From sequence record NC_028248.1: 64,000 bases of DNA. One strand, given 5' to 3'. Position 1 is the first letter of the stretch; each line of letters begins with the position of its first letter. The notes below the pieces were generated by a model, which saw nothing but the letters and a program-made list of their open reading frames with translations, was not told where the DNA came from and ran no database searches. This document shows, one piece after another, positions 1-63,876 of this stretch. The DNA comes from Escherichia phage slur16. The position numbers and the translations under genes are program-made.

Positions 1-789
1 GGGAAACTTACCCTTCATTTCACCAGTGTATACCTTCTCTGGGGCGTTGATGGCATCATAGAACCTTCTGTTCACTTCCTCTGCTTGTTTGTTGGTGGCG
101 CAAATTGTGAGAGCATCTGTTGGTACACCACCTTTGTAACAGCGAGCATTAAGTTCTGCTACAACCTCTTTTATGCGACGACCCTCACGAACACAGTTGA
201 GCATTGTGGCAAATCGAATAGACTCCTGTCGGAACTGATCTATTAGGGCTATGTTGTGGAGGTCAAGCTCTTTCCAAGATTCGGTATAGCAACACAGGTC
301 CGTATGGTAGAAGTTGAAATAGGCCTCCTTCTCCATAAAAGAGACAACAGGAGGAGCCTGGTAAAAATCGCCAAACAATATGACCTGTATGCCTCCGAAA
401 GGTTTGTCATTTTTTCGAAGGAAGCGGAGTTTCCTATCCATCTCTATAAACTTATCAGCACGGATCATAGAGATTTCATCGATAATTAGGATGGTAAATG
501 CCTTGCTTTTCAAAGGCTTTGCTGTTTTTGCCCTTATTGCGGTCCAGTCTGACTCCATGCTCACACCTGCTGCAAGATCGAAGGTTCGGTGTGCTGTTGC
601 TCCATTAACGTTTAAAGCGGCTACCCCTGTCGGGGCAACCGTTATGCAAGAGTCTCCATACATTGACTGGATCATGTTGATGAGGTACGTCTTCCCACAA
701 CCTGCGGGTCCTGAAACGAAGACATTCTCACCACTCATGATTGCAACGAGGGCAGCATCTGTGCCTACATCATACTGCCCTTTTTCCAT
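1..789 (-). CDS. SF1B helicase, Pif1/Dda/RecD-like (3' end beyond window start)
   Basis: Manual translation of minus strand from ATG at 789..787 gives Walker A GPAGCGKTY, Walker B IIDEISM and ILFGDFYQAPPV, typical of Pif1/Dda helicases. GGAGG RBS upstream; TAATG stop/start overlap with the upstream gene. No stop within window. Confidence 0.75.
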   Translation of the reverse strand, partial: MEKGQYDVGTDAALVAIMSGENVFVSGPAGCGKTYLINMIQSMYGDSCITVAPTGVAALNVNGATAHRTFDLAAGVSMESDWTAIRAKTAKPLKSKAFTILIIDEISMIRADKFIEMDRKLRFLRKNDKPFGGIQVILFGDFYQAPPVVSFMEKEAYFNFYHTDLCCYTESWKELDLHNIALIDQFRQESIRFATMLNCVREGRRIKEVVAELNARCYKGGVPTDALTICATNKQAEEVNRRFYDAINAPEKVYTGEMKGKFP

Positions 790-1994
790 TACGCCTCCTC
801 GTAAAGAATGTCGATAGTGTTACCGTCACGATCAACTACATATTCAATAGGGTCTCCATCTTTGCGTGCTTCCGGAGCTACCACAATCTCATAGCGGCAT
901 GCACGGCACTTAGCGCTATTGTGTTGGTATGGCACACTAACCACATCTGCAGGGTCAACCATAACAGTCATTACAGTGCCGTAGCTCTTTGCATACTCTT
1001 TGCTGGCGCAGTGTAAGCCATAGGAGCACGCAGCTTCAGGATCATCCTCTACAAAGTTACGAGGCATGGATACAAAAGCACCTTGGTATTGTGGGACTTT
1101 ACCACTGTGCCAATCCACCCACTTGCTGCCGTTAAACTGAACCCCTTTGTAGCAAATGATTCGACCATCTTCTGCAATCTGGATATCGTTGGCCTGCATA
1201 AAGTCGTAGAGCATGTTTACAGATTTTGCAGAAGGATTGCGTAGCAGGCGAACGAGGAATTTCACATAGCGGTCATCCAGTGTTCCGTCTGCATAATCTT
1301 TCTCAATTTTCTTTGCAATGGTGGATCGCATCTCTACACCGTAGTAGTAGAGCTTACCATCTTTCATGATCAGGTTGTCTGCAAGTGTGGTGAACTCATT
1401 CTTGCGTTCCAGCCAGACAAGGATTTCACCAATTGCCTCATCATATTCCTGAACAGAGATATGGTCGAAGACTTTCTGGTAAACTTCCTCACTTTCGCTG
1501 CGGCGAATTTCAAAAATGCCTTCGTTGCAGGTGATCTGGAGGAGTTCCCCGCAAATAACTACCAAAGGTTCGATGCTTCGAGTCTGTTGCTGAGACACAC
1601 TACTCACCACTTCCAGCACCGGATCTTTGACTTCTACTAAAGGTTCTTCTGACTTGATTGCTACTCCAGTGAACCCCACACCGTGAACAACACACAGTGG
1701 GTATACCACGCCCCAACGTTTAACGGAACCTTCGCCTAAATCTAAGATCATGGCGTACTTACCGTTATCTTCCAGACCGTATCGAAATAAACGGGCTTCT
1801 TCGCGGGTTTCAAAATCCTCACGGGTGTAGCAGACGCTGTCACGGTCAGGATCGAACAACTCTGGGGCACCCACTGCCAGTGTCCAGGTTGTGTCGCCTT
1901 TCTCAATAGTACATGTGAAACCCTTCTTCTCAAGTTCTGCACGGCGGTCGCGTGCTTCTTTACGAGTTTTGAAGTGTTCGTAGATGAAAATCAT
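789..1994 (-). CDS. hypothetical protein (~401 aa)
   Basis: ORF 789..2030; start moved to ATG at 1994 (MIFIYEHF) which has an AAGGAGA RBS and removes overlap with the upstream gene. No motif recognised. Confidence 0.55.
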   Translation of the reverse strand: MIFIYEHFKTRKEARDRRAELEKKGFTCTIEKGDTTWTLAVGAPELFDPDRDSVCYTREDFETREEARLFRYGLEDNGKYAMILDLGEGSVKRWGVVYPLCVVHGVGFTGVAIKSEEPLVEVKDPVLEVVSSVSQQQTRSIEPLVVICGELLQITCNEGIFEIRRSESEEVYQKVFDHISVQEYDEAIGEILVWLERKNEFTTLADNLIMKDGKLYYYGVEMRSTIAKKIEKDYADGTLDDRYVKFLVRLLRNPSAKSVNMLYDFMQANDIQIAEDGRIICYKGVQFNGSKWVDWHSGKVPQYQGAFVSMPRNFVEDDPEAACSYGLHCASKEYAKSYGTVMTVMVDPADVVSVPYQHNSAKCRACRYEIVVAPEARKDGDPIEYVVDRDGNTIDILYEEA

Positions 1995-2004
1995 AACTGT
2001 CTCC

Positions 2005-3987
2005 TTATTTGGTGTTATTCTTTGTATCAATCAGCTCACGGTATTCAATCATAGCAGGGGTGTCCCAATATTTCAAGCCTACATGCTTCAAAAGTGGATA
2101 TTTCTTTTCCAATCTTGCAATATAGGCCTTCCCGCATTTGACTCGGTTGGCGATTAAGATTTTGGCACGATGATTTAGCTCACTATGCTTCCACGCGGTG
2201 TTACCTTCCCACTTGTGGAAATGTGGCCGATAATTTCCAAAATCTTGCATGGGGATAATTTTCCCCAATTGTCTATACAGGCTGTCATATGAAGTTTCAT
2301 TTGCTGCGCGAGTCAGTAAGAATTTCCAAGCATCCTCTTTCAACAAATGTTCCACACTCTTCTCTGTAACATACTGGCAATCAGGATCAGTCCAAAGCAG
2401 ACGAGATTCTGATACCAGGTACAGATCTTCCCCTTCAGGAATCTGAAGTGCCGCACGCACACGGTCATAATTTTGCTGGTAGATGTTACTCAGCTGTCCC
2501 AGCCAACAACTTCCACGTTGGATATCACCCTCATAAGGGATGCAGTGTTTAATCTTCCGGAACTCTGCCTTAGTAATACGCTCACGGCGAAAGTAACCAT
2601 CCTTCTCAAGTTTTTTAACCCAATAACCTGGCTCATAACGAGTTTTTGTTTCACCTTTCTTGACAGGTCGGCGAGGGAGCTCTGATAACAATTTGACCGT
2701 ATCTGCAAAGAACGGGTGGTGTGCCGCTTCTTTAAACTCTTCCACCAGATCCGTGTTACGGCAATAGAAAACGTTGCGTCCGGTGATCTCGCTTAAGTAG
2801 TTACACTTATTTCGGTTATATTTGCCGTCTCCGTCGTTAAATACTAAATAGACTCCCCGCAAAAACTCTGACTTTCCATAACGAGCATAGCCTATGCGGC
2901 CTTTATTTAAGCCGCCAGCGAAAATTTCACAATCGCCTAAGTCTCCAAGTCCTGTTTCTTCCCAACGGTTCCACATAAAGTTTTTGCCGAAGATGTGTCC
3001 GAACACCCCACTATTCTTCATCATTTCACGTGCTTCTGCGGAGGTTTTTGCCGTCTCCAGTTCTGCAACAACTTCTGCCCCGCGAAGACGTATACCTTCT
3101 TTGACAAAGGCCTCCAGGCGATCCTGGAATCCACCGTCGTCATGGCCCTCTATGGTCCATTCACGCCCAGGGTTAATATTGCAATCCCCAATAGGAATTT
3201 CCACGCAGATTGCAGGGTAATCGGTCAATGTCTCCAGGAACTTAGAGCGGTAAGGTTGGTGACCCATCACAACACGGCTCTCATCAGAGCTGGTATAACC
3301 TTTCAGGATAGTCATTTTCCAACCATCTTTCTCGTAGCGATACTGCGCCTCAACCTTGTCACCTTCCAGCATCTTACTGGTCATAGGGTCGGTAACGGTA
3401 AACGGAAACTTTGCATAGCGTAGGCATGACGCAATAGCAGTGCGATATTTCAGAACATGCTCTTTCTTAACATGGAACTGAACTTTTACCCCGTTGTGCT
3501 CTTCAGTCTTCCGCTCGCGGATCTTGGTAACGTTTGGGATACCCTGATCCAAGAACAATAGATATGTGCTTTCAACACCGTTGTGCACACTGATCACATC
3601 GAAAGTGTCCACCATGCTGAACGGGGCCTTTGAACCTACACCTTTATTACCTACCAGAGCGTTGCTGTTGCGCTTGGTTGACTCCCCGAGGTTCATGAAA
3701 GTGTTGCGGACCATCTCTTCTGACATACCCAATCCAACGTCCTGCACAAAGAAGTATGGTTCAAGGTCTGTAGGGGAGTGAATGATGATCGGTACATCAC
3801 CCCGTCCAGACTCAACATGGGAGTCCACAGCATTGAAGATTGGTTCACGGCAGCTTGCCAGCACCTTATCTTCGTAAATCCCTTTAATGATTAGCCCAAA
3901 AGTCTCTTTGTTCAGAGAAATTGAGCCCCTGGTGACCTCCATATTTCCGGTTAGTACTGCTTTAGTTTCATTACTGTTTACAATCAT
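2005..3987 (-). CDS. GHKL (Bergerat-fold) ATPase-domain protein with large uncharacterised C-terminal region
   Basis: N-terminal motifs EPIFNAVDS (N box), DVGLGMS (G1, Hsp90/MutL-like DxGxG) and GNKGVGSKA (G2). No Toprim EGDSA motif, so not a GyrB-type topoisomerase subunit. C-terminal ~450 aa unassigned. Confidence 0.6.
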   Translation of the reverse strand: MIVNSNETKAVLTGNMEVTRGSISLNKETFGLIIKGIYEDKVLASCREPIFNAVDSHVESGRGDVPIIIHSPTDLEPYFFVQDVGLGMSEEMVRNTFMNLGESTKRNSNALVGNKGVGSKAPFSMVDTFDVISVHNGVESTYLLFLDQGIPNVTKIRERKTEEHNGVKVQFHVKKEHVLKYRTAIASCLRYAKFPFTVTDPMTSKMLEGDKVEAQYRYEKDGWKMTILKGYTSSDESRVVMGHQPYRSKFLETLTDYPAICVEIPIGDCNINPGREWTIEGHDDGGFQDRLEAFVKEGIRLRGAEVVAELETAKTSAEAREMMKNSGVFGHIFGKNFMWNRWEETGLGDLGDCEIFAGGLNKGRIGYARYGKSEFLRGVYLVFNDGDGKYNRNKCNYLSEITGRNVFYCRNTDLVEEFKEAAHHPFFADTVKLLSELPRRPVKKGETKTRYEPGYWVKKLEKDGYFRRERITKAEFRKIKHCIPYEGDIQRGSCWLGQLSNIYQQNYDRVRAALQIPEGEDLYLVSESRLLWTDPDCQYVTEKSVEHLLKEDAWKFLLTRAANETSYDSLYRQLGKIIPMQDFGNYRPHFHKWEGNTAWKHSELNHRAKILIANRVKCGKAYIARLEKKYPLLKHVGLKYWDTPAMIEYRELIDTKNNTK

Positions 3988-4484
3988 TTATTGCGCTCCT
4001 TGTAGTAGATATGACTCCCGAATTGAGCTGTCCTCTGCATCTTTTTTGCCCATTTCGGTCGTACTTTGGTTGTATGGTAGTGTGTTGCTCCACCTGTTAT
4101 GTCCATAGCCATGTATGCAACATGGTTGTTATTATAGACCTTTAGAAGCATCTTTGCAAGACTTTTAGCGTGATCCCATGAATCTTTTTCTGTCACCTTA
4201 AAAGTTTTGCCGTGGTTTGTCCACGAAAACTGGTTAGGTTGGTAGACAATCTTTCTTATAGTGTCTGGGTATTTGGGGTGAGATTTCCTGTTTAGTGTGG
4301 CAAATCCTGATGCCAGCATACCCATCGTGCCATCCCCTCTAGCCTCCCTGTAGATATTGCATGCCAGAATGTTTTCCTTAGTATCTGAGGGCTTGCAAGT
4401 ATGATATACTTTTTGTTTTGGTGCTGCAACAACAGGCAGCGATAAAAATGCGCTCAAAATAATAGCAAAGATCTTAATTTTCAC
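3984..4484 (-). CDS. secreted cell-wall hydrolase, SleB/CwlJ-like (Hydrolase_2 family)
   Basis: N-terminal signal peptide MKIKIFAIILSAFLSLPVVAAP followed by YREARGDG...LNR...YQPNQFSW, matching the EARGE / NR / QFS hallmarks of SleB-type hydrolases. Confidence 0.55.
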   Translation of the reverse strand: MKIKIFAIILSAFLSLPVVAAPKQKVYHTCKPSDTKENILACNIYREARGDGTMGMLASGFATLNRKSHPKYPDTIRKIVYQPNQFSWTNHGKTFKVTEKDSWDHAKSLAKMLLKVYNNNHVAYMAMDITGGATHYHTTKVRPKWAKKMQRTAQFGSHIYYKERNK

Positions 4485-4491
4485 AATAACT

Positions 4492-4520
4492 CCAAATAGA
4501 AAATCCCCGCCGAAGCGGGG
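4492..4520 (-). terminator. rho-independent terminator candidate
   Basis: Plus-strand CCCCGC-cgaa-GCGGGG hairpin (4505-4520); on the minus-strand transcript it is followed by a U-rich run (revcomp of 4492-4504). Lies between gene ends 4534 and 4484. Confidence 0.5.
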
Positions 4521-4533
4521 GAGGTCTTAGAAA

Positions 4534-4914
4534 TCAATCGTAGTGTGCCAAAATCTCTCCATCGTTGCAAGTTCCCTCTACAAAGTTATGAAGATTCATG
4601 CACTCATCTTGATAGAAGAATTTACCGCTTTTCAGCCGTAAGCCAAACAACTCCGCATCTCCACGATGGCAAGCCTCTACAAGTTCATAGATTTCATACG
4701 GCAACTCTCCGTCGTCATGGAAGAACCCAGCCTTATCGTTGACATAGATGAAGAAATAATCACTGCTATCGCAAGCGTCCAATATTTCAAACCAGATTTC
4801 ATCTACATCTTTTTCTCGGATATCGATCACGCAAGTGGAGCTGCATTCGTACTCCTTCTCCGGCTCTTCGGTCAATACTACCAGGTAGTTTCCCCGCTTA
4901 CCTACTTTAGCCAT
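4534..4914 (-). CDS. hypothetical acidic protein
   Basis: 126-aa ORF, compact spacing with neighbours, no motif recognised. Confidence 0.45.
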   Translation of the reverse strand: MAKVGKRGNYLVVLTEEPEKEYECSSTCVIDIREKDVDEIWFEILDACDSSDYFFIYVNDKAGFFHDDGELPYEIYELVEACHRGDAELFGLRLKSGKFFYQDECMNLHNFVEGTCNDGEILAHYD

Positions 4915-4923
4915 ACAACCTCC

Positions 4924-6108
4924 TCAAGCTTTAGCCAAAATGGCGCTAAACTCTTCACCAAACTCTTTTACAATCTTCATCAGGTTTGGGTATGCTTTAA
5001 TCAGCTGAGCAACAATCTTGTCACGCCCTTTACCGATAAGCAAGGCATTTCCTAAGGCATTAGGTTTCATCATCGCCATAAAGACTGAGAATACAAAATC
5101 TCGGTTCTCGTCCTTGAAATTTTCCCAAAGGAAATCGAGGAAGTTTGCCACACAGCTAACAAGATCTTCGTCGGAGATACTTGCATTTTCCATCATATTA
5201 CGAATAGCGATACAACCTTCAGACCCAAGAATCCACAAGATGTCTGGCTGTTTAGGACCTATGTATTCTTTGCAACCCCCTGCCATAATCCGACCGATTT
5301 CCGGTAAGTTGCGTTTCTTGGTGTGGTAGGTCCAGATCTCTACCGCTGCAGTGTGACCAATAGCACCTTGCAGAAGAACACGGGCCATAGCGTCAGAAAT
5401 AATACCGCTGTCAAAATCGTGCAAGATGTCAGATGCAGCAACCCAAGATCGCGGTGTGGCAAAAGATGGACAATTAATCTCAGCCATAGCCTCATAATTA
5501 TCGATAGCTGATGGAACTCTTTTCAGATACCCAATTACAGAGGAGTGCACCCCATTGAGGAATGCGTAGTCCTCAATAAACACCTCTGCATTGCTTGTAA
5601 CCTCTACAATGATAAAGCGGTTAGCCAGAGGAGCTTCGAGCGCCGAAAGAACAGCACCATCTGTAGAACGGTTACCCGCAGCCACAAAAACAGAGCCTTT
5701 AGGGAATGCATAGGTGCCGCACTTGTGGTCGAGCATAATCTGCATTGCAACCTTTTGCAGATAGTTATCTGCATGAGTAAGCTCATCCAGAAAGATAATT
5801 CCACCCCAGTTCGGATCTGCAGGCCAAAATTCTGGAATTGCAAACACTGTACGTGTAGTTCCATCAGCTTCTACAGGGATAGGTAGCCCAGATAAGTCGG
5901 CAGGATCTTTATCTGACAGCCGCACGTCAACCAGGTTGTCATCTCGCTCACCGAACATATTATCGGCGATCTGCTTCATCACCTGGCTCTTTCCCACGCC
6001 CATTGGTCCTAAAATCAGGACAGATCGGTTATGACGCTGGGCAAACTGAATGATAGCTGGCAACTCACGGACAGTGATTTGACCACTTTCAAATACGTTT
6101 CTTGACAT
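4924..6108 (-). CDS. AAA+ ATPase, MoxR/CobS-like
   Basis: Walker A LILGPMGVGKSQ, Walker B IIFLDELTHA, downstream sensor region VFVAAGNRS; size (~394 aa) typical of MoxR/CobS (AAA_5) proteins. Confidence 0.7.
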   Translation of the reverse strand: MSRNVFESGQITVRELPAIIQFAQRHNRSVLILGPMGVGKSQVMKQIADNMFGERDDNLVDVRLSDKDPADLSGLPIPVEADGTTRTVFAIPEFWPADPNWGGIIFLDELTHADNYLQKVAMQIMLDHKCGTYAFPKGSVFVAAGNRSTDGAVLSALEAPLANRFIIVEVTSNAEVFIEDYAFLNGVHSSVIGYLKRVPSAIDNYEAMAEINCPSFATPRSWVAASDILHDFDSGIISDAMARVLLQGAIGHTAAVEIWTYHTKKRNLPEIGRIMAGGCKEYIGPKQPDILWILGSEGCIAIRNMMENASISDEDLVSCVANFLDFLWENFKDENRDFVFSVFMAMMKPNALGNALLIGKGRDKIVAQLIKAYPNLMKIVKEFGEEFSAILAKA

Positions 6109-6416
6109 TAGTAAAAGTCCTCTACTTGTGTGTAAGTGTTTTCAAAGTTTTCCAAAACAGATGCCACATCGGATCTGTCAATATCGTACACAACTTCCCA
6201 GTTGTATGCAACCCTTTCTGCTGTTGCTTCTTCAGGACTTAGCCGTCTACTGGGGTGAAAGAATGTTGGGGTACACCTTCTTAGTTGTCTTCCGGTTTTC
6301 CCATAACAATATCTGTGGATAACTTTGTCAAAATTTAACTCTTTTTCTGCACAAAGTTCGTGTTTCTGGTATAACATGTTTATTACTCTTCTAAGCGGCA
6401 TCCCTGCCACCACCAC
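6108..6416 (-). CDS. hypothetical protein
   Basis: 102-aa ORF, start/stop abutting neighbours in an operon-like array. Confidence 0.4.
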   Translation of the reverse strand: MVVAGMPLRRVINMLYQKHELCAEKELNFDKVIHRYCYGKTGRQLRRCTPTFFHPSRRLSPEEATAERVAYNWEVVYDIDRSDVASVLENFENTYTQVEDFY

Positions 6417-6419
6417 CTG

Positions 6420-6800
6420 CTAGAATGCAGTTCGAATCCAGACAAGGTTCTTATCTGCCCAATCATAGAGGCAAGTCATTGCGCTATTGAATTGCTCACA
6501 CGGAGGATAATCTTCTTCCATCTGGCGCATAGCAGAGCCTTGTGGGTAAAGCTCCCGTGCTGCAAGCCACGCATCGTAGTCATCCACGGTATCGAAGTAG
6601 TATACAACATCCTCCAACTCAGGATCGAACTTTGAATTATCAGGATCCAGTTGTTCAGGGAACTTGGAGCGTAACTTGCCAGCCACAATGCTTGCCAACT
6701 CGCTAACATGCTTATTGTCCCACTCTACTAGTTTCCCGTCTTCAGCGATGCGTCCTAACCACTGATCATGAAGGTCAACTGTTGTCTTCCACCGGGCCAT
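6420..6800 (-). CDS. hypothetical protein
   Basis: 126-aa ORF in a co-directional tightly packed array. Confidence 0.45.
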   Translation of the reverse strand: MARWKTTVDLHDQWLGRIAEDGKLVEWDNKHVSELASIVAGKLRSKFPEQLDPDNSKFDPELEDVVYYFDTVDDYDAWLAARELYPQGSAMRQMEEDYPPCEQFNSAMTCLYDWADKNLVWIRTAF

Positions 6801-6802
6801 TA

Positions 6803-7060
6803 TCAGTCCACCTCTTCTTCTCGTTGCAGTTCAAGATACCCGTAGGTCTGGATATCTTCAAGGGTGTGGAAATCCCCATCTGCCGCTAAGGCACGAACAA
6901 CTTGGCACAAAACTTTATGAGGAACTTCATCCAGACCCAGATTCAGTGCAGGGAACACCTTATCTAAGTCAACAAAATAAACGAACTGTAGCTCACCAGC
7001 TTCAAAAGGTGTATCTTCAATAAACATCTTCTCGGCATTAGTCAAGATCTGCACTTTCAT
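6803..7060 (-). CDS. hypothetical protein
   Basis: 85-aa ORF, abuts neighbours. Confidence 0.4.
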   Translation of the reverse strand: MKVQILTNAEKMFIEDTPFEAGELQFVYFVDLDKVFPALNLGLDEVPHKVLCQVVRALAADGDFHTLEDIQTYGYLELQREEEVD

Positions 7061-7437
7061 TATTCTGCCTCCTCTTCTTTTTCTTCGGCGTTAGTTTCAG
7101 TGCTACCCCACTCTGGAGTTTCCACCTCGATAGTAAACTCACGCACTACACGGTAATTGCCCATGAAGCGCTCCACCTCGTCAAGGCTTATGGCGAGGCC
7201 ATTGGAAACCAGGTCTGCAGCACCCTCTTCTACCAGATAGTCCAGATTGGCTTCCAAAGCTTCAGGCTCGAACCCTGTCAATGCAATCAGATAACCTTTC
7301 CCTTCATCAGGTAGGACAATACAGCCCAACTGATTTTCTTTAAAAAGGCAGTGACCATCATTATTGATGGGGTGTTCATTGCAGTAAATAGCTGCACGAT
7401 AAGTAGCTTTAGACATCGGTAAGGCCTCCTTAGGCAA
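7060..7437 (-). CDS. hypothetical protein with acidic C-terminus
   Basis: 125-aa ORF ending in EEKEEEAE; overlaps neighbours by 1-8 nt. Confidence 0.4.
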   Translation of the reverse strand: MPKEALPMSKATYRAAIYCNEHPINNDGHCLFKENQLGCIVLPDEGKGYLIALTGFEPEALEANLDYLVEEGAADLVSNGLAISLDEVERFMGNYRVVREFTIEVETPEWGSTETNAEEKEEEAE

Positions 7438-7708
7438 TTGTCATTTTACATTCTTGAAATTTTAACACAAGACGGTGATTGTGTCTAGTGTCTAAAAAGA
7501 TTTTTTCAACCATCAGGCACACGGTATAACCGTCCATCTTGTTAACAACAAAATCTCCAGGGTGAGGGAGGATGTCCCCTGGATTGGGGAAACATAACCC
7601 GCTCAAGAAGGCATCATCGGTGGTGGACTTAATGGATTTCCACACATTGTCTGCCTGAACATTTTCACCCACATAGTATACACTACCACATGCCTTCATC
7701 ATAGTCAA
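7430..7708 (-). CDS. hypothetical protein
   Basis: 92-aa ORF, overlapping start/stop with neighbours. Confidence 0.4.
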   Translation of the reverse strand: MTMMKACGSVYYVGENVQADNVWKSIKSTTDDAFLSGLCFPNPGDILPHPGDFVVNKMDGYTVCLMVEKIFLDTRHNHRLVLKFQECKMTIA

Positions 7709-8604
7709 ATCTCCGCGTAAATTAAACTGGAATCAGTATACTTCTTTAACGGGTAAATATCCTGTCCATAGATGCCGTCATTAAACACCTCATCTACCCA
7801 AAGGCTACACTTATATCCCATCATTTCTAAAACGCCCATCTCTTCTTCGGTGAACTTATCACCGCTCTTGCAAGATGTCAATACCTCATTCTGTACTCTT
7901 GCTACCTCGAAGCGGTTATTGGCAATATCACTATTGGCAATCAAATACTCACCTAAAGGGTGTGCAGCATTAAAGATGCACAGTGGACGGTTGACGTAAT
8001 AGTCTCCCGGTGTATAAAAATTGTTGAGATCCTTCACCAGAACATTCTTATCAGTCACTTCATTTATAACATCATGCATATCACACATCTTTATATGTTT
8101 GAGGATTCCATCCCCCATCACAAAATAAAAACTTGCTGAGACACTCTCGGCATAGATCTTACTAGATCCGTTGTAGTTGTATTTTACGCGAATGCTTACA
8201 GGGGTTTTGCCTGTCGCGTTAGCCATCATCCAAAGGAACGGAAGTTCAAACCTCTCCTCTGAGGAAACAAAAGGTGAAGTTGCCAGAGATCGGAAACCTC
8301 CAGAAAAGTTGAAAGTTACAGAGCCGCTCCGGCGGTATGATACCGCGTATTCTACTTTTATATCGACGTACCCATTGGAATAGGTGTGTCCTTCATTATC
8401 TAAATATGTCCACTTATCAGACCCAGATACCAATCTACGCTCAATAACCTTCATCACTACAGGAATTAGTGGGTTGGTACAAACCGCTTTTGAAGTAGCT
8501 TTATCATCTAAAGCCTCGTAAATTGCAGAAAGGATGTCCCCAGCTGAAAGATTGGTTGTTATGTCCTGTTTCCACCGCGTACTAAAACTGTTAAGATTTG
8601 CCAT
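7705..8604 (-). CDS. hypothetical protein, first gene of the leftward block
   Basis: 299-aa ORF; AGGAG RBS upstream of ATG at 8604; promoter candidate immediately upstream. Confidence 0.5.
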   Translation of the reverse strand: MANLNSFSTRWKQDITTNLSAGDILSAIYEALDDKATSKAVCTNPLIPVVMKVIERRLVSGSDKWTYLDNEGHTYSNGYVDIKVEYAVSYRRSGSVTFNFSGGFRSLATSPFVSSEERFELPFLWMMANATGKTPVSIRVKYNYNGSSKIYAESVSASFYFVMGDGILKHIKMCDMHDVINEVTDKNVLVKDLNNFYTPGDYYVNRPLCIFNAAHPLGEYLIANSDIANNRFEVARVQNEVLTSCKSGDKFTEEEMGVLEMMGYKCSLWVDEVFNDGIYGQDIYPLKKYTDSSLIYAEI

Positions 8605-8644: not shown

Positions 8645-8673
8645 ACTATATTGTGGAGTTAGAGTAAAGTCAA
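8645..8673 (-). promoter_or_regulatory. sigma70-like promoter for the leftward block
   Basis: On the minus strand: -35 TTGACT (8673..8668), 17-nt spacer, -10 TATAGT (8650..8645); ~40 nt upstream of the ATG at 8604. Confidence 0.5.
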
Positions 8674-13604: not shown

Positions 13605-14071
13605 ATATGGACTACAGCTACTGCGGGGAAGAAGTTCCTTTTAACTACAGCAATCTTACCACGAGCAATCCATATGAGACTCGCCACGGCACGCACATCA
13701 TCGCCATTGACTTTGATGGAACGTTTAATGCGAGCCCTTTCATCTTCTCCCGCCTGATCAGGGATCTGAAGAAAGAGGGGTGGACAGTCTACCTTGTGAC
13801 TTTCCGATTCATTACTCAAGACAATGTAGACATCGAGTATTGGCGCAAGGAGCTCAATGTTGGTGTGTTTTATACTGGTGGTGTTCAGAAGGCAGCCTAT
13901 CTGGCGCAGTTTGATATCTACCCAGATATCTGGATTGATGATTCTCCGGCATGTATTCCGGCTAAGAATCAGTTAGAGTTTGCAATGAAGGAGATCGAGT
14001 ATAAGTCTGAGGCTAAGCGGAACGGATGGCCCTTTATTATTGAAGATTACCCAGATCCTGAACCGGAGTAA
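13601..14071 (+). CDS. HAD-superfamily phosphatase-like protein
   Basis: HIIAIDFDGTF matches HAD motif I (hhhhDxDGT); size ~156 aa. Confidence 0.45.
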   Translation: MNMDYSYCGEEVPFNYSNLTTSNPYETRHGTHIIAIDFDGTFNASPFIFSRLIRDLKKEGWTVYLVTFRFITQDNVDIEYWRKELNVGVFYTGGVQKAAYLAQFDIYPDIWIDDSPACIPAKNQLEFAMKEIEYKSEAKRNGWPFIIEDYPDPEPE

Positions 14072-14076
14072 GAGCC

Positions 14077-14247
14077 ATGAGGCGAAGATATCATTACCTG
14101 ATGTGGAAGTTATATCAAAATGCTGCCAAAGCCTATCATACCATGTTTGGCAATGACGATCACTACATCATGCTACATCTCACCGCTATTGAGCATCACA
14201 ATGAGTGGATTCATGCAATCGTGGCAGGTGATAAAGACTTTAAGTAA
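14077..14247 (+). CDS. small ORF (56 aa) absent from the ORF track
   Basis: ATG at 14077 preceded by GGAG 8 nt upstream; translates to MRRRYHYLMWKLYQNAAKAYHTMFGNDDHYIMLHLTAIEHHNEWIHAIVAGDKDFK; stop at 14245-14247. Confidence 0.35.
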   Translation: MRRRYHYLMWKLYQNAAKAYHTMFGNDDHYIMLHLTAIEHHNEWIHAIVAGDKDFK

Positions 14248-36282: not shown

Positions 36283-39200
36283 TTACTTCAGTTTCTCTTG
36301 CAATCCAGTAACAACCTCTGTCAATTTTTTAACCTGCTCCTCAAGGGCGGTTATTTTATCGTCCTGTTCCCTGCAAACCTGGACAAGCAAGCCTGTTACA
36401 GCTGCGTAGTCAACGTTATAGAACCTTTCCTCGGTCATCAGAGGAATACCGTCTTGAGTAGGACCTTCTATTTCCTTCCTTTTCACGAAAGATCCTACTG
36501 CCTCTGGCAATGCTTCCATAACCTCTTGAGCAATCACGCCTGCATAAGGCATACCATTCTCTTTCAAGGTGTAGGTATAGCCTTTCATCTTTCTAATTGC
36601 TTCCAGAGCGTTAGGTATGACCTCTATATTATCCTTCAGGTCTCTATCGGAACTTTGGCTAACAGTGGTACATTCTACCGTGCCGTTGACAGCAAAATAT
36701 CTTGATTTAGCCTCATCTGTCTTAGCTCCGCAGTGGAATACCCAGCTGGCGGCTGTTGAGTTATCACTTATCTGAAACTCAAGCACATTCTTCCTATCAG
36801 CGCCATTACCCCAATAGTACAACCTGCCTGTATTAGAAGGCATGTTCGAAGTGTTGGTAACATCAGCACCACCACCTGTGTGTATTGTGAACTCAGGTTC
36901 AAGATTGGACCCTTGAGTTTTTAAAGTGATACCCTTACCGCCAAGCTGCTGCCAATGGCCCCATGTGAAAACACCACCTATCGTTGTTCCATAACGCAGG
37001 AATTTTTCTCCAAGATATGTTGTATATTCCTGTACGCAACTCTCTGGAACGTTGGCATAGTTTCTATAGACAAGGAGAGTACCTGCCTGAGAGCATGGGT
37101 AGTTTCTATCAAGTGCGGCTTGAGCATTGGTCTCCTGATGATAAAAACCCTCTCTATCTCCTTTGTAGTCGTTAAGGTCATTAGTTCCCAACCCTTGACC
37201 ACGGTGCTGAATAACTTTGTTCCACGCTCTGTGGTTTCCCTGCTCTATGGAACGAGTGTACAGCTGGTCTAAACGACCTGCCATCTGGAAAGCGTAGTTT
37301 CCAGAAAAACCAACCGACAACCCTGCTACAACCATGGAACCTTCAGGTCCGTTGACGTTACCAGCCATTATTTTAGAAGGGTTGTTATTCCCGAACTGGT
37401 TGTTCCAGTCTGCACCTGTGTGGCATACAAAACCACCAGGAGCTGAGAAAGTGCCATCTTTGTTGAAGTTGTAGAATCTGTGAGCAGAACCTACAACATC
37501 ACGAACAATAACTTGACCAGCCTCTGGAGTAGATCTGAACTCTGCCTGACCTTTGAGACCAGCACCATTACCGCATTTAGAGGTAAACGTACCGTTAGTC
37601 AGATCCTCTGTCCCATCTGATGCACACTGGAAGCCTGCATTAGAGAATAACGCCTTTCTAGGACTGCCGTAGCACAAATAGTCAAGACCGTCTGCCCATA
37701 GCTCGACTTTTGGCATATTCATTTTGCTCATCACAGCATAGCGTTCAGCAGTGCCTATATAGTGCCACTGTGTGCCGCCACCAGTGTAGAACCCTGAAGT
37801 ACCTTTGAAGTCAACAATAGGTCTGGTATTGGTGTTATTATCTCCAAGAATAGCAAGATTCAAATCTGCTGACTGAAGAGGTGCAACGAACTTAACCCCA
37901 TCCTGATTGTCTGTTACAGCCCCAACCTGGTAATCTTGCTCTCTGGTAAACACTTCGACAACATTTCTACTTGCGTATATGCTGACAGGGAAAGCACGAG
38001 CCTCCACATAGAAAGCAACATACTCTTGTTTACCCCTTGTTGGAGCAATCATCCCAAGAAGTGCTTTTTCATTCTGGTAGAAATTTACTACCCCGTAGAA
38101 AGAGTCTCCCCTGTCCGTCCAGCCGCCAGTTCTATAGTGACACTGCAGGGTGGCACAGTTCATAGGGTCATTTCCAGATGAAGACCTGGTGACTATAGTA
38201 ATATCTGTACCTGTCGAAGGGGCGTAATACGGATCTGTTCTAACGATGATTGGGTAGTATTTCCCATCTTCCATCCCTGCGGTTCTTGGTAGTGTTAAGA
38301 AGTCTTTTACACCTGCTGCTATAGGAACTTTGAACAGATTCTGAGCATCTGCTAAAGTTGTAGCCCCGGTGCCACCTGCGGCTTGAGGTAGAGGTTCCCA
38401 CTTGGCCTTCCGGTTGTTATAAACACCCCATTCCAGAGTGCCGTTACCGGATTCGTCCATCCCACCATCCCAGATAACCATCTTGGCGGCTTTCTTGGAC
38501 CCCCAGAAGCCTCTTTCTGCTCCTGAACTACGAATCCACTCTCCAAGTCCCCAGTTTGTCAGCTGACCAGTAAGATCCCCAACCTGCATGTATTTAGGGC
38601 AGTCTAACACGCCGTCTTCGCGGAAACCTAAATATCTATGGGTTTCAGATCCTTTTGCACCTTTGTGCAGGTGGATTGTCAACCAAGCCTTATTGTCGTT
38701 TCTTACCTCAGAGTAGATCCTATATCCATGCTCAAGGACACCGTCAGCGCTGTATTTGTCCCCGTTAACAATACCTGATGCTGACTTAACATCAGCAGAA
38801 CTTTGAGACAGGTAAAGGTGCCCGAAGGTAGGGGAGTTTCTAGACCCGAGACCGATGTGCGATCTAAAGGTATCATCGTTACGAGGTCTGACCATTGGCT
38901 GCCATGCAGTCCACTGGTTTGTGTTGGCCTGATAGGTTCTCAAATACCAAACATCCACGTTAGAGAATGGATAGTATTCCTGACGACAACCTGTACCGCC
39001 GTTAGCATTGTTCTGCCAAACAATCAAGTGACCAGCACCAGAACCTGCAGGGTAACCATTTGCCTCAGTTGCATAAGCAGTCATCGGCTGGTAGTATACA
39101 CCATCCTGATTACCAGTCAAGTTATTGATATTGAAATTTGGCTCAAGGGCTGCACGTTGCTTATAGAAAGCCCCGATATTGATACGGACTCCAGCGGCAT

Positions 39201-61214: not shown

Positions 61215-61533
61215 CGTTTATGTTCGGGCAAGGTCGCTAGTCTTGCCCCGCCATTTTCAGGCAGCTGCATGTCTCCATGCAGACCAGACTATATCTTATA
61301 AGCGACAACAACCGCTTATCCTCCCGTTTCGAATCGCTTGATTCTACGTCTTTCGACTAGTCGTTGAACGTTCATCCTCTCGGATGCTTCGCTGCGGATT
61401 ATCTAAATTAACACACTGTTACCATACCTTCGATCTCTCTTCGAAGCCTCTATCATGTTACCATGACAGGTTGGTGGTATTAATAGTAAAGATTTCCCCG
61501 CAATTAGGGAGGTTTTACGAGAGCTACAAATTA
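61215..61533 (-). other. ~319-nt non-coding intervening sequence splitting terL; candidate self-splicing group I intron
   Basis: Exon 1 frame hits TAA right after the Walker B codons (..TGC TTC GAT GAG GGT | TAA); no ORF in the insert; hairpin-rich sequence. Proposed 5' splice after U at 61534 and 3' splice after G at 61215 restore the frame (..VCFDEG|TQFEWEQ..). Confidence 0.5.
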
Positions 61534-61959
61534 ACCCTCATCGAAGCAAACCATGGTGTACTCAAGCCCTTGATGGTTAAGCTTATCTTGTACATACTCC
61601 ATGTGGCAGTATTTTACAACAGCTCCCTTTTTGCTTCTATCCCACTTGCCAGTGTTCGGATCAAACCGTGGAAAAATGAACTTATGATCCTTCTCTCTGA
61701 ACTTTGGCTTAATGTTTTCAGGCAGATCACTATAAATAGCTACCGCTTTAGGCCATAGTCCACCCTCACCTTCCAACTGCGGGGTTGTTCTTCGGAACAT
61801 AACCACAGAGCTGTGGGGGTCATCAATAATTTTAAGTGGCATCAATTGCAAGAGGAACGACTTGCCAGACCCTGCGGCACCGCCGATTACCAAAATATCT
61901 GCATCGTTTTCGAGGATCATCTTCTGCTTTTCAGAACACGGTCCGTAAATCTTAGACAT
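61534..61959 (-). CDS. terL: terminase large subunit, N-terminal ATPase part; putative exon 1
   Basis: Walker A VIGGAAGSGKSFL and Walker B TMVCFDE, with a stop immediately after the DE(G). Confidence 0.65.
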
Positions 61960-62246
61960 TAACCGCTCTCCTTTGGAAACAGTGTTCTAATATAGTCTTG
62001 CAAAATGATCAATTTAGCTCTATCATTGCTACAAGACAGATTATTATCCCTCATAATGCCAGAATTCACTGCATCTGGCGCACCTTTCTTCAAAGGCATA
62101 GCTTTAGCAGGTGGTTTCATGGCACCTTCCGGGGGTTTAACAATCAACCTTCCTACATCCGGAGGGTCAATCTTGTATTCTCTCTCAACGTTGGTTGCAC
62201 ACCCACATAATAACAAGCACACAATAAACAGTGTAGCAACTCTCAT
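61959..62246 (-). CDS. outer-membrane spanin (Rz1-like lipoprotein) candidate
   Basis: 95 aa; N-terminal signal with lipobox-like LLLCGC; Pro-rich mature part; 4-nt overlap with the upstream i-spanin candidate. Confidence 0.45.
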   Translation of the reverse strand: MRVATLFIVCLLLCGCATNVEREYKIDPPDVGRLIVKPPEGAMKPPAKAMPLKKGAPDAVNSGIMRDNNLSCSNDRAKLIILQDYIRTLFPKESG

Positions 62247-62641
62247 CGATCCTCCTGATTGATACTCTCATTATAAATATCTATAAGCTGATCAGGGAGT
62301 GTTGACTTCTTGCCTTCAGGTGACTGGAGGTAGATAATCTGCTTTTCTTTACCTGCCTTCTCAGCCATATTTAATTTATCCTGCAGATCAGAAAGGGATT
62401 TTTCAAGGTTTTTAACCTCCTCTGCGTGGCCCATTTTAATTTTGTCGGCCTGCTTTTGTTGCTGATCAAGGATCCGTTCCCACTTTAACTCTGTTGCTGA
62501 CACACCCTCTTGGTAGGCTTCATTAAGCTTAAAGTTAAACCAATATACGGCTCCAAGATAAGCTGTACCTAGCGCAGCTGCAAAAACTAAACCTTTTATG
62601 ATCCCTCTATACCTACTCAGCCATGTTAAAACTGAAATCAT
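62243..62641 (-). CDS. inner-membrane spanin (Rz-like) candidate
   Basis: 132 aa; N-terminal transmembrane helix (GIIKGLVFAAALGTAYLGAVYWF) followed by a charged coiled-coil region. Confidence 0.45.
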   Translation of the reverse strand: MISVLTWLSRYRGIIKGLVFAAALGTAYLGAVYWFNFKLNEAYQEGVSATELKWERILDQQQKQADKIKMGHAEEVKNLEKSLSDLQDKLNMAEKAGKEKQIIYLQSPEGKKSTLPDQLIDIYNESINQEDR

Positions 62642-63062: not shown

Positions 63063-63139
63063 TGGTCTCCACGGAGTGATTCGAACACTCGACCTCCTGA
63101 TCCCAAATCAGGCGCTCTACCAAGCTGAGCTACGCGGAG
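63063..63139 (-). tRNA. tRNA-Pro (anticodon UGG)
   Basis: Hand-folded cloverleaf: acceptor CTCCGCG/CGTGGAG, anticodon loop TTTGGGA, T-loop TTCGAAT, encoded CCA. Confidence 0.8.
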
Positions 63140-63150
63140 TATTTATTATT

Positions 63151-63225
63151 TGGTGGCCCTGGGTGGAATTGAACCACCGTCTGGCGATTATGAGTCGCTT
63201 GCTTGAACCTTCCAGCTACAGGGCC
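63151..63225 (-). tRNA. tRNA-Met (anticodon CAU; elongator or Ile2-type not distinguished)
   Basis: Acceptor GGCCCTG/CAGGGCC, anticodon loop CTCATAA, T-arm GGTGG-TTCAATT-CCACC, encoded CCA. Confidence 0.75.
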
Positions 63226-63226
63226 A

Positions 63227-63302
63227 TGGTGCTGATGGCAGGACTTGAACCTGCAACCTATTGATTACAAATCAATTGCACTACCAATTGTGCTACATCA
63301 GC
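63227..63302 (-). tRNA. tRNA-Thr (anticodon UGU)
   Basis: Acceptor GCTGATG/CATCAGC, D-stem GCAC/GTGC, anticodon arm ATTGA-TTTGTAA-TCAAT, T-arm GCAGG-TTCAAGT-CCTGC, encoded CCA. Confidence 0.8.
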
Positions 63303-63308
63303 AAAAAA

Positions 63309-63407
63309 GGTGCTAGGTGATGGAATCGAACCACCTATGTATTCAACGACTACCTCGTCTATTTTCAGGATTAAAAATCCTCGCCCTTGCCAAAGGGCTT
63401 ACCTAGC
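63309..63407 (-). tRNA. atypical 99-nt tRNA-like gene (anticodon candidate UUU, oversized ~30-nt variable region)
   Basis: Perfect 7-bp acceptor GCTAGGT/ACCTAGC, D-arm GCCC-TTTGGCAA-GGGC, T-arm GGTGG-TTCGATT-CCATC; anticodon arm only 4 bp (AGGA/TCCT) around loop TTTTTAA; 30 nt between anticodon and T arms; 3' end ACC-U, so CCA not fully encoded. Confidence 0.45.
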
Positions 63408-63505
63408 TCAGTATGTTGACCATGTTGCTAGTCGGCGATGACGACTGTAACATTTGATAATCCGGTTCTGCTTCCGGCTTTCGCTTAATTACAAGGTCAA
63501 CAATA

Positions 63506-63596
63506 TGGCTGAGGGTAATGGAATCGAACCATCATCGAGTCATCCTCAACGGGACGGTTTTCAAGACCGCTTGAGCACCATTGCTCCCTACCCTCA
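63506..63596 (-). tRNA. tRNA-Ser (anticodon UGA), type II
   Basis: Acceptor TGAGGGT/ACCCTCA, anticodon arm GCGGT-CTTGAAA-ACCGT, ~19-nt variable arm, T-arm GATGG-TTCGATT-CCATT, encoded CCA; 91 nt. Confidence 0.75.
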
Positions 63597-63710
63597 TTTA
63601 TAAACAATACTGATAATGACACTGATTTTCGAGCAGTTAGTGACTAGTATAAACGACGATAAATATCAATGCCATTATCTGTATGATTTATGCATTTAAA
63701 ACTATAAATT

Positions 63711-63797
63711 TGGTGGGGAGTGGTGGAGTCGAACCACCCGAGTCGTAATGACAATAGATTTACAGTCTACACCGCTACCTCTACGGGATAACTCCCC
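63711..63797 (-). tRNA. tRNA-Tyr (anticodon GUA), type II
   Basis: Acceptor GGGGAGT/ACTCCCC, anticodon arm GTAGA-CTGTAAA-TCTAT, long variable arm, T-arm GGTGG-TTCGACT-CCACC, encoded CCA; 87 nt. Confidence 0.75.
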
Positions 63798-63801
63798 AAT
63801 T

Positions 63802-63876
63802 TGGCACCCCGTACTGGACTCGAACCAGTGTCAACGGCTTAGAAGGCCGCTGCTTTATCCACTAAGCTAACAGGGC
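63802..63876 (-). tRNA. tRNA-Arg (anticodon UCU)
   Basis: Acceptor GCCCTGT/ACGGGGT with two G-U pairs, anticodon arm GCGGC-CTTCTAA-GCCGT, T-arm ACTGG-TTCGAGT-CCAGT, encoded CCA. Confidence 0.7.

Follow-up and report, generated by a model that had tools for sequence, protein, structure and literature searches.

A putative exported SleB-type cell-wall hydrolase encoded beside rIIA in an rV5-like Escherichia phage, and its possible part in lysis

The stretch of DNA analysed here (the window) comprises 64,000 nucleotides of the Escherichia phage slur16 record NC_028248.1, and the gene in question, on its minus strand, encodes a SleB-like cell-wall hydrolase. Over the 3 kb around the gene, the sequence shows 100% identity to that of Escherichia phage slur12 (LN881735.1; Vequintavirus, rV5-like) and matches more than 100 other rV5-like genomes at 97–99% identity. 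Phage slur12 was used as the full-genome reference, with window position w corresponding to slur12 position 109771-w on the opposite strand. The slur12 counterpart of the gene is CUL03211.1, 'Cell Wall Hydrolase', and the rV5 counterpart, gp2, was annotated in 2013 as "cell wall hydrolase, PF07486" (PMC3606486). Other records name it "SleB cell wall hydrolase" or "endolysin", the latter being the RefSeq and PHROG label, and a 'cell wall hydrolase' or 'endolysin' label stands on the gene in more than 100 GenBank records. The feature itself is known and annotated, and is not new as an annotation; its signal peptide, Vequintavirinae-wide conservation and toxicity on expression were published in 2020 (PMC7344957). 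The additions made here are incremental: the conserved arrangement of a terminator and a weak start codon, the systematic coupling, in sister genera, to a gene for a small membrane protein, and three export forms of the family. The gene has the following features.

3984..4484, minus strand: coding sequence of the SleB-like (Hydrolase_2) preprotein, 166 amino acids, GTG start; orthologue of rV5 gp2
4425..4484, minus strand: predicted Sec signal peptide, codons 1–20, MKIKIFAIILSAFLSLPVVA, from hydrophobicity, the -3/-1 rule and conservation among homologues
4395-4397 and 4359-4361 (span 4359..4397), minus strand: codons of Cys30 and Cys42, invariant in the 17 nearest homologues
3999..4373, minus strand: catalytic Hydrolase_2 / SleB-type domain, residues ~38–162, including N65-R66 and Q85-F86-S87
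4344-4346, minus strand: codon of the catalytic Glu47, in the Hydrolase_2 domain

By profile, motifs and modelled fold, the gene product is a member of the Pfam family Hydrolase_2. The hidden Markov model search matched PF07486 with 70.4 bits against a cutoff of 27 (E = 2.1e-19; profile positions 2–100 of 100), and PHROG 938, 'endolysin', was matched with E = 1.7e-27. The only sequence matches in the PDB are the catalytic domains of Bacillus cereus and Bacillus anthracis SleB (4F55 and 4FET). The same two entries are the only significant PDB matches of an AlphaFold model built from a 75-sequence alignment (predicted local distance difference test (pLDDT) score of 94.9), with a target TM-score of 0.72–0.79 and a root mean square deviation of 2.7 Å. 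A single-sequence AlphaFold model (pLDDT 47) was unusable and was superseded by the alignment-based one. E47 aligns with the Glu of the SleB Y-G-E-S-R-G motif. Conservation was counted in an alignment of 160 retrieved homologues and the query (161 sequences), in which E47 is present in 159 and R66 in all 161, and N65, Q85, F86 and S87 each in at least 96%; W145 is listed as invariant, and Y45 and R49 are conserved in at least 90%, giving a core of Y-x-E-A-R-G, N-R and Q-F-S-W. An earlier note on this DNA, made from the letters alone, had read the product as a SleB-like cell-wall hydrolase with EARG, NR and QFS hallmarks; the profile and structural matches bear this out, and no columns of the family are more conserved than the hallmarks.

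The family is widespread. A profile-free exhaustive search returned 11,334 representative homologue clusters at E <= 0.001, and tblastn found a homologue in 1,264 phage records, including Vequintavirinae, phi92/phAPEC8-like Stephanstirmvirinae, T5-like and PAK_P1-like phages. Judged by its profile score, the phage protein is not a SleB equivalog: TIGR02869 gave 48.3 bits against a cutoff of 236.5, aligning only residues 31–162 with model positions 83–201 of 201. The N-terminal peptidoglycan-binding domain of SleB is absent, and residues 1–20 form the predicted signal peptide. Hydrolase_2 has been placed among the lytic transglycosylases in PhaLP (PMC8310338).

The N-terminus has a three-part architecture, composed of the n-region MKIK, the h-region IFAIILSAFLSL and the c-region PVVA|AP. 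The h-region comprises 12 residues before Pro17, is rich in Leu, Ile and Phe, and is followed by the proline as a helix breaker at position -4. Val and Ala satisfy the -3/-1 rule for a signal peptidase I cut at A20|A21, and a cut after A21 is excluded, since it would place Pro22 at +1. The 19-kDa basic preprotein would thus yield a predicted mature protein of ~146 amino acids, ~16.9 kDa and pI ~10. Among the 159 nearest representative homologues a hydrophobic N-terminus precedes the domain in 141, and in 131 it is accompanied by a -3/-1 site; the signal sequence itself is not conserved, and a relative at 81% identity has a diverged one (MKKFILAILLGILVSLPSFAAT) ahead of identical first mature residues. 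This anatomy agrees with the cleavable-looking signal peptide of the earlier note. A signal peptide was also reported by Buttimer et al. in 2020 for the orthologue CB7_83, which was toxic when expressed in E. coli (PMC7344957). We infer a classical Sec signal peptide, by which the protein would be exported and cleaved. Cys30 and Cys42 probably form a periplasmic disulfide; the pair is confined to the exported subfamily and is missing in the cytoplasmic (leaderless) homologue of phage Tr60_Ab31. We consider it very likely that the gene encodes an exported, active peptidoglycan-cleaving enzyme.

The minus-strand surroundings of the gene include the following elements.

4494..4520, minus strand: terminator-like hairpin CCCCGC-TTCG-GCGGGG followed by ATTTTCTATTT; equals rV5 terminator t003 (Kropinski Table S4)
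4490..4493, minus strand: Shine-Dalgarno sequence GGAG, 5 nucleotides upstream of the GTG start
3984..3987, minus strand: ATGA overlap of the SleB-like stop and the rIIA start, with AGGAG inside the 3' end of the SleB-like gene
2005..3987, minus strand: rIIA homologue (HATPase_c_3), directly following the SleB-like gene
789..1994, minus strand: rIIB homologue, next gene downstream of rIIA
8645..8673, minus strand: sigma70-type promoter TTGACT-17-TATAGT (rV5 P010), the only predicted promoter feeding the leftward unit upstream of the SleB-like gene

The overlap and the internal AGGAG make it likely that translation of rIIA is coupled to that of the SleB-like gene. The gene after rIIB encodes a helicase, and a gene for a MoxR-type AAA ATPase lies farther upstream of the SleB-like gene. 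Its immediate upstream neighbour (4534..4914) encodes an acidic protein of 126 amino acids; this was considered as a conserved partner or inhibitor and rejected, its homologues being confined to Vequintavirus. The rV5 table gives a 'T5.083' similarity for this protein, but comparison with a T5-like locus did not reproduce it. Residues 8–42 of rIIB gave a SPOR-domain match of 19.8 bits, below the cutoff of 21, which was taken as probably due to chance, being subthreshold in a protein without an export signal.

Kropinski et al. describe the transcription unit as genes 10-1-238-164, starting where a bidirectional promoter region separates genes 10 and 11. The SleB-like gene is on the same, minus, strand as the structural genes (~15.5–62.6 kb), in a separate unit with a rightward unit between them (PMC3606486); the earlier note, which had put it in the opposite transcriptional block from the late genes, is corrected on this point. 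A late-promoter-like motif, TGGTAAAATA with at most one mismatch, occurs 17 times in the window against 6.5 expected. Fifteen of these occurrences are on the minus strand, within 13467-61619 and mostly in the structural-gene region, and none of the 17 falls in window positions 1-8600. With P010 upstream and no late motif in this interval, the SleB-like gene belongs to a non-late unit; what stands of the 'early block' proposed before is a unit with a sigma70-type promoter and no late-promoter motif. For rV5 a T4-like late promoter motif has been proposed, with which the distribution of TGGTAAAATA is also in accord.

The t003 hairpin is located between the upstream gene and the SleB-like gene, ends 20 nucleotides before the start codon and has a deltaG of -16 kcal/mol. 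Related loci from uncultured viral genomes, 80 in all and found with 17 close sequences, were compared. A hairpin with a T-rich tract stands at the equivalent place in 16 of 19 nearest-subfamily loci and in 1 of 56 distant ones, ending 17–27 nucleotides before the start; the stem sequences vary between lineages. PAK_P1 also has a hairpin; in the phi92/phAPEC8-like phages the site is occupied instead by a sigma70-like promoter, the -35 element of which is TTGCAA and the -10 element extended. Translation starts at GTG in Vequintavirus and at ATG in Certrevirus and T5-like phages, and TTG is used in Mydovirus, Seunavirus, the two genera of Stephanstirmvirinae and two additional uncultured lineages; among the annotated genes of JES2013, 113 of 128 start with ATG (12% non-ATG). 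The Shine-Dalgarno sequence is predicted to pair only marginally with a segment upstream (z = -2.0). The terminator and the weak start codon together suggest that the dose of the enzyme is kept low, which agrees with the toxicity of CB7_83 on expression.

Other lysis genes of the window lie at its far end.

61959..62246, minus strand: o-spanin, 95 amino acids, lipobox LLCGC; adjoins a large terminase fragment
62243..62641, minus strand: i-spanin, 132 amino acids, N-terminal transmembrane domain (TMD); adjoins a large terminase fragment

The spanins are 57.5 kb from the SleB-like gene, close to the ~58 kb given earlier. No lambda-R-like lysin was found by tblastn within the 64-kb window. In slur12, "Phage lysozyme" CUL03132.1 (36596..37066) adjoins the DNA ligase gene and lies outside the window, ~8.7 kb from its end; it has 156 amino acids, 63% identity to lambda R (E = 3e-68) and no hydrophobic segment. 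Its rV5 counterpart, gp89, was called the "obvious lysin", and LysECP26, an orthologue of this lambda-R-like endolysin, has been purified, was muralytic in vitro and lysed 29/29 Gram-negative strains tested (PMC9728275). In LL12, too, the lambda-R-like gene was listed as the endolysin by the annotators, who were unable to name a holin (PMC6658697). The best holin candidate in the full slur12 genome is a protein of 75 amino acids with two TMDs and a charged C-terminus (13950..14177, minus strand, outside the window), corresponding to the rV5 gp129 holin candidate (PMC3606486).

Given the lambda-R-like endolysin in slur12, the SleB-like protein would be a second lysin. The earlier note had proposed a secreted endolysin and had named a canonical endolysin elsewhere in the genome as one half of what would speak against it. 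Such an enzyme exists, so that 'secreted' keeps the support of the SleB fold, the intact catalytic Glu and the Sec signal peptide, but the protein is not 'the' endolysin. In slur12 the gene does not adjoin lysis genes, its neighbours being rIIA and a genus-specific hypothetical gene; in sister genera a gene for a protein with two TMDs lies directly downstream. The term 'endolysin' in its functional sense is unproven for the SleB-like protein.

Three side observations concern the surroundings of these lysis genes. Directly downstream of the lambda-R-like endolysin gene, ~8.9 kb past the window end, slur12 36326..36532 (L009 6327..6533, minus strand) is an open reading frame for 68 amino acids, the product of which has a signal-peptide-like N-terminus (MKDFLLAILFMAACLACGVVFA|GE) and conserved-looking Cys residues, and may regulate lysis as a small periplasmic protein. 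Fragments make up the large terminase gene (61531..61959, minus strand, and beyond), with an 'endonuclease VII' coding sequence between two fragments in JES2013, in agreement with the intron or homing-endonuclease interruption described for rV5 and LL12. A tRNA cluster of seven genes (63063..63876) includes an odd 99-nucleotide tRNA-like gene (63309..63407, minus strand), reported by ARAGORN with the 4-base anticodon atcc; the slur12 record lists its counterpart as tRNA-???, and JES2013 annotates four tRNAs in the region.

The neighbourhood differs among the sister genera. In Mydovirus and Seunavirus, a gene for a membrane protein of 51–57 amino acids starts 4 nucleotides past the SleB-like stop codon in 8 of 9 loci (L015-L018, L020-L022, L027), with rIIA next after it where the locus extends far enough; in 4MG (Seunavirus) it is annotated as gp078 (57 amino acids, two TMDs), the SleB-like gene there being gp079. 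In Certrevirus, a gene for a two-TMD protein of 62–65 amino acids overlaps the SleB-like stop in 4 of 5 loci (L023-L025, L038) and is followed by the helicase gene, with no rII. The Certrevirus protein was proposed as a class II holin by Buttimer et al. (PMC7344957). The small downstream proteins have two hydrophobic segments, with a basic C-terminus in the Seunavirus type, and are pinholin or holin candidates. No homologue of these proteins was found in slur12 by tblastn (no match with E < 0.1), and no credible small two-TMD open reading frame was found on the coding strand in or near the SleB-like gene. The ancestral order was likely SleB-like gene, small membrane-protein gene, rIIA, rIIB and helicase, with Vequintavirus now without the small gene at this place.

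From their N-termini, phage members of the Hydrolase_2 family seem to occur in three export forms. The leaderless form is represented by ORF65 of Pseudomonas phage vB_PaeP_Tr60_Ab31, which has the same catalytic domain and motifs and a Gram-negative host, and has neither signal peptide nor Cys pair. Its gene is part of a cassette composed of Q, a multi-TMD protein and the lysin, with Rz three genes later, and by this arrangement ORF65 appears to be the holin-dependent endolysin of its cassette; a classical cassette of this kind implies that members of the family can serve as true endolysins. An anchor-like, or signal-anchor-release (SAR)-like, N-terminus is present in PAK_P1 and in marine uncultured-phage homologues (N-termini such as MGVIAGAIGIAMLGAP...). 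The N-termini of marine-type loci L043, L053, L058, L064 and others are uncharged and Gly/Ala-rich (for example MGVIAGAIGIAMLGAPTVD), and SAR-like. The classical signal-peptide form is that of the present protein and of its homologues in the sister genera, Stephanstirmvirinae and T5-like phages, and it occurs consistently together with a different, standard lysin. This is a Phage_lysozyme in rV5-like phages and in Phapecoctavirus, for which two lytic proteins were reported (PMC10793346), a modular lysin in PVP-SE1 (PMC3352856) and an M15 peptidase in CB7 and T5 (PMC7344957). Across Vequintavirinae the SleB-like gene is inherited (44–53% identity to slur12) and the other lysin is swapped between genera.

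These observations lead us to a reading that we rate as somewhat probable, in which the protein is a low-dose, Sec-exported periplasmic auxiliary lysin of the SleB type that contributes to lysis. We infer the following course. The enzyme would be made in small amounts together with rIIA and rIIB from the leftward, non-late, sigma70-type unit, exported by Sec and cut by signal peptidase I after Ala20, giving a soluble periplasmic enzyme with one probable disulfide. Glu47 would cleave the bond between N-acetylmuramic acid and N-acetylglucosamine, most likely as a lytic transglycosylase by analogy with SleB. As a holin-independent second lysin, the enzyme would be in the periplasm before the holin fires; the lambda-R-like endolysin and the spanins would complete lysis, and the SleB-like enzyme would help or speed the destruction of the sacculus.

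Several points weigh against this reading. Searches of the literature turned up neither knock-outs nor transcription timing nor biochemistry for the SleB-like protein, its T5 homologue or any signal-peptide Hydrolase_2 phage enzyme, and no experiment on export, cleavage, muralytic activity or a lysis phenotype for the SleB-like protein. The adjacent two-TMD gene is absent in slur12, which has rIIA in its place, and the link to a holin is made only by analogy with the sister genera. Bacillus SleB requires muramic-delta-lactam, which E. coli peptidoglycan lacks, so that the substrate specificity of SleB cannot be transferred. Both lysins are probably transglycosylases, and two enzymes acting on the same bond would have no obvious synergy. 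The lineages with non-ATG start codons are related, their counts are not independent, and the patterns may be partly inherited. Finally, a periplasmic hydrolase made before the late genes could equally serve a role outside lysis.

This last point is the core of the strongest alternative, early periplasmic peptidoglycan remodelling in the service of cell enlargement, of limits on superinfection through a change of envelope or vesicles, or of envelope integrity together with rIIA and rIIB. The sigma70-type promoter, the non-late unit without a late motif, the overlap with rIIA and the apparently deliberate low expression are all consistent with such a role, as is the retention by T5-like phages of a signal-peptide homologue outside the hol-lys cassette. 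The presence of the gene in all Vequintavirinae genera, while the canonical endolysin varies, also suggests a distinct role (PMC7344957; PMC3352856). However, the rV5 endolysin and holin candidate too lie outside the late operon, so that position does not discriminate; a holin-like two-TMD gene is coupled to the SleB-like gene in sister genera; Certrevirus has the SleB-like gene but no rII (PMC7344957); and literature searches found no precedent. For superinfection exclusion, raised in the earlier note, the evidence weighs neither for nor against. We consider remodelling unlikely, though it is the most serious of the competitors.

Improbable, by comparison, is that the uncleaved N-terminus tethers an inactive enzyme to the inner membrane until depolarisation by a pinholin, as in a SAR endolysin. 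The composition of the N-terminal segment argues against this: its short 12-residue core is rich in Leu, Ile and Phe, its Gly/Ala/Ser/Thr fraction is 0.35 (35%) and its Kyte-Doolittle mean 2.5, against 0.55–0.65 (55–65%) and ~1.9–2.0 for the P1 Lyz and phi21 R SAR segments. Lys residues precede the core, and the P-V-V-A|A site that follows it contains a clear V-x-A, an anatomy that recurs in 131 of 159 homologues; the segment does not have the character of a SAR domain. In favour of tethering are the small two-TMD gene downstream in sister genera, the Gly/Ala-rich, uncharged, SAR-like N-termini of distant marine homologues, and the usual reading of export signals on Gram-negative phage lysins as SAR domains (PMC8223927).

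A bolder proposal, which we regard as a long shot of much the same standing as the SAR reading, is that the SleB-type enzyme and the genes coupled to it form a second, Sec-dependent circuit for lysis or envelope integrity, with the rII proteins as a membrane-side safeguard against premature firing. The partners would be rIIA and rIIB here, and a pinholin-like two-TMD protein followed by rIIA and rIIB in Mydovirus and Seunavirus; the periplasmic enzyme would be restrained as long as the membrane is energised and set free on de-energisation. If this were true, the rII genes of 'rapid lysis' and 'membrane integrity', long unexplained, would gain a concrete partner, and the terminator and weak start would be the dose control that makes a dangerous enzyme tolerable. 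The N4 lysis paper makes no mention of rII.

It is more doubtful still that the SleB-like protein is the principal endolysin of rV5-like phages and the lambda-R-like enzyme the accessory. The RefSeq and PHROG label 'endolysin' would fit this, as would its being the conserved lysin of the subfamily, in which the other lysin changes from genus to genus (PMC7344957; PMC3352856). The rV5-like phages also have no positively identified holin (PMC6658697), and a Sec-exported lysin would need no large-hole holin. Against it, the lambda-R-like enzyme is kept at ~98% identity across the genus and is active (PMC9728275), the 75-residue two-TMD holin candidate exists (PMC3606486), and expression that seems to be throttled is more in keeping with an auxiliary enzyme. 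A virion-associated lysin for wall penetration at entry, raised in the earlier note and compatible with a peptidoglycan hydrolase by family, is very unlikely, because a cleavable export signal cannot be reconciled with virion assembly in the cytoplasm, the part of the rV5 virion mass-spectrometry data available to us contains no gp2 peptides, CB7_83 appears in the lysis section and not in the virion protein table in the available parts of the CB7 paper, and baseplate gp25-like lysozyme candidates are already present (PMC7344957).

A periplasmic auxiliary lysin thus remains our preferred reading. Its interest extends beyond this phage: a signal-peptide Hydrolase_2 enzyme stands beside a standard endolysin in several unrelated groups of large virulent Gram-negative phages (rV5-like, phi92/phAPEC8-like and T5-like). 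To know whether it serves as a lysis accelerator, a back-up export route or an early modifier of the envelope would sharpen models of lysis by therapeutic coliphages and indicate the more promising antibacterial candidate of the two enzymes. As a separate observation on the distribution of such genomes, 16 GenBank 'Campylobacter phage' records (host C. jejuni) are 97–98% identical to the E. coli rV5-like window at 3000-6000, and these deposits are likely mislabelled or contaminated.

Among known systems, the closest are the orthologues of rV5 gp2, namely slur12 CUL03211.1, Pectobacterium phage CB7_83 and Cronobacter CR3_087, which are the same gene, all with Hydrolase_2 and a signal peptide. 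Identity is 99–100% within Vequintavirus and 44–53% in Mydovirus, Seunavirus and Certrevirus, and the genes are syntenic, upstream of rIIA or the helicase (PMC3606486; PMC7344957). The sister genera have the small two-TMD gene after the SleB-like gene, whereas here rIIA overlaps the stop codon instead; otherwise there is no substantial difference. The T5-like 'SleB putative cell wall hydrolase' (for example HildyBeyeler bas33_0077) has ~40% identity and a signal peptide (MKAALLLVAALTFSFNSHA|T), and lies away from the hol-lys genes, the endolysin of which is an L-Ala-D-Glu peptidase, hence it too would be a second lysin; it differs in having an ATG start, no Vequintavirinae upstream terminator and different neighbours. 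Bacillus SleB, a germination-specific lytic transglycosylase (4F55, 4FET), shares the fold and the catalytic Glu in Y-x-E-[AS]-R-G at 21–24% identity in the structural alignment, but the phage protein has no peptidoglycan-binding domain and no YpeB partner, and the phage host has no muramic-delta-lactam cortex.

In its mode of delivery, the protein would resemble Lys44 of oenophage fOg44, reportedly a Sec-exported signal-peptide endolysin of another catalytic family that is the sole lysin in a Gram-positive host. Sec export and a cleaved signal peptide are predicted in both, and the enzyme would already be positioned when lysis is triggered; the rV5-like host, however, is Gram-negative, and a second, soluble endolysin is present. 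Holin-independent secreted endolysins have been described as a general class (PMC7143992). With the SAR endolysins (P1 Lyz, phi21 R21 and N4 gp61) and their pinholins, the SleB-like protein would share Sec-dependent, holin-independent delivery and, in sister genera, a two-TMD partner, but its N-terminus has the composition and the cleavage site of a classical signal peptide.

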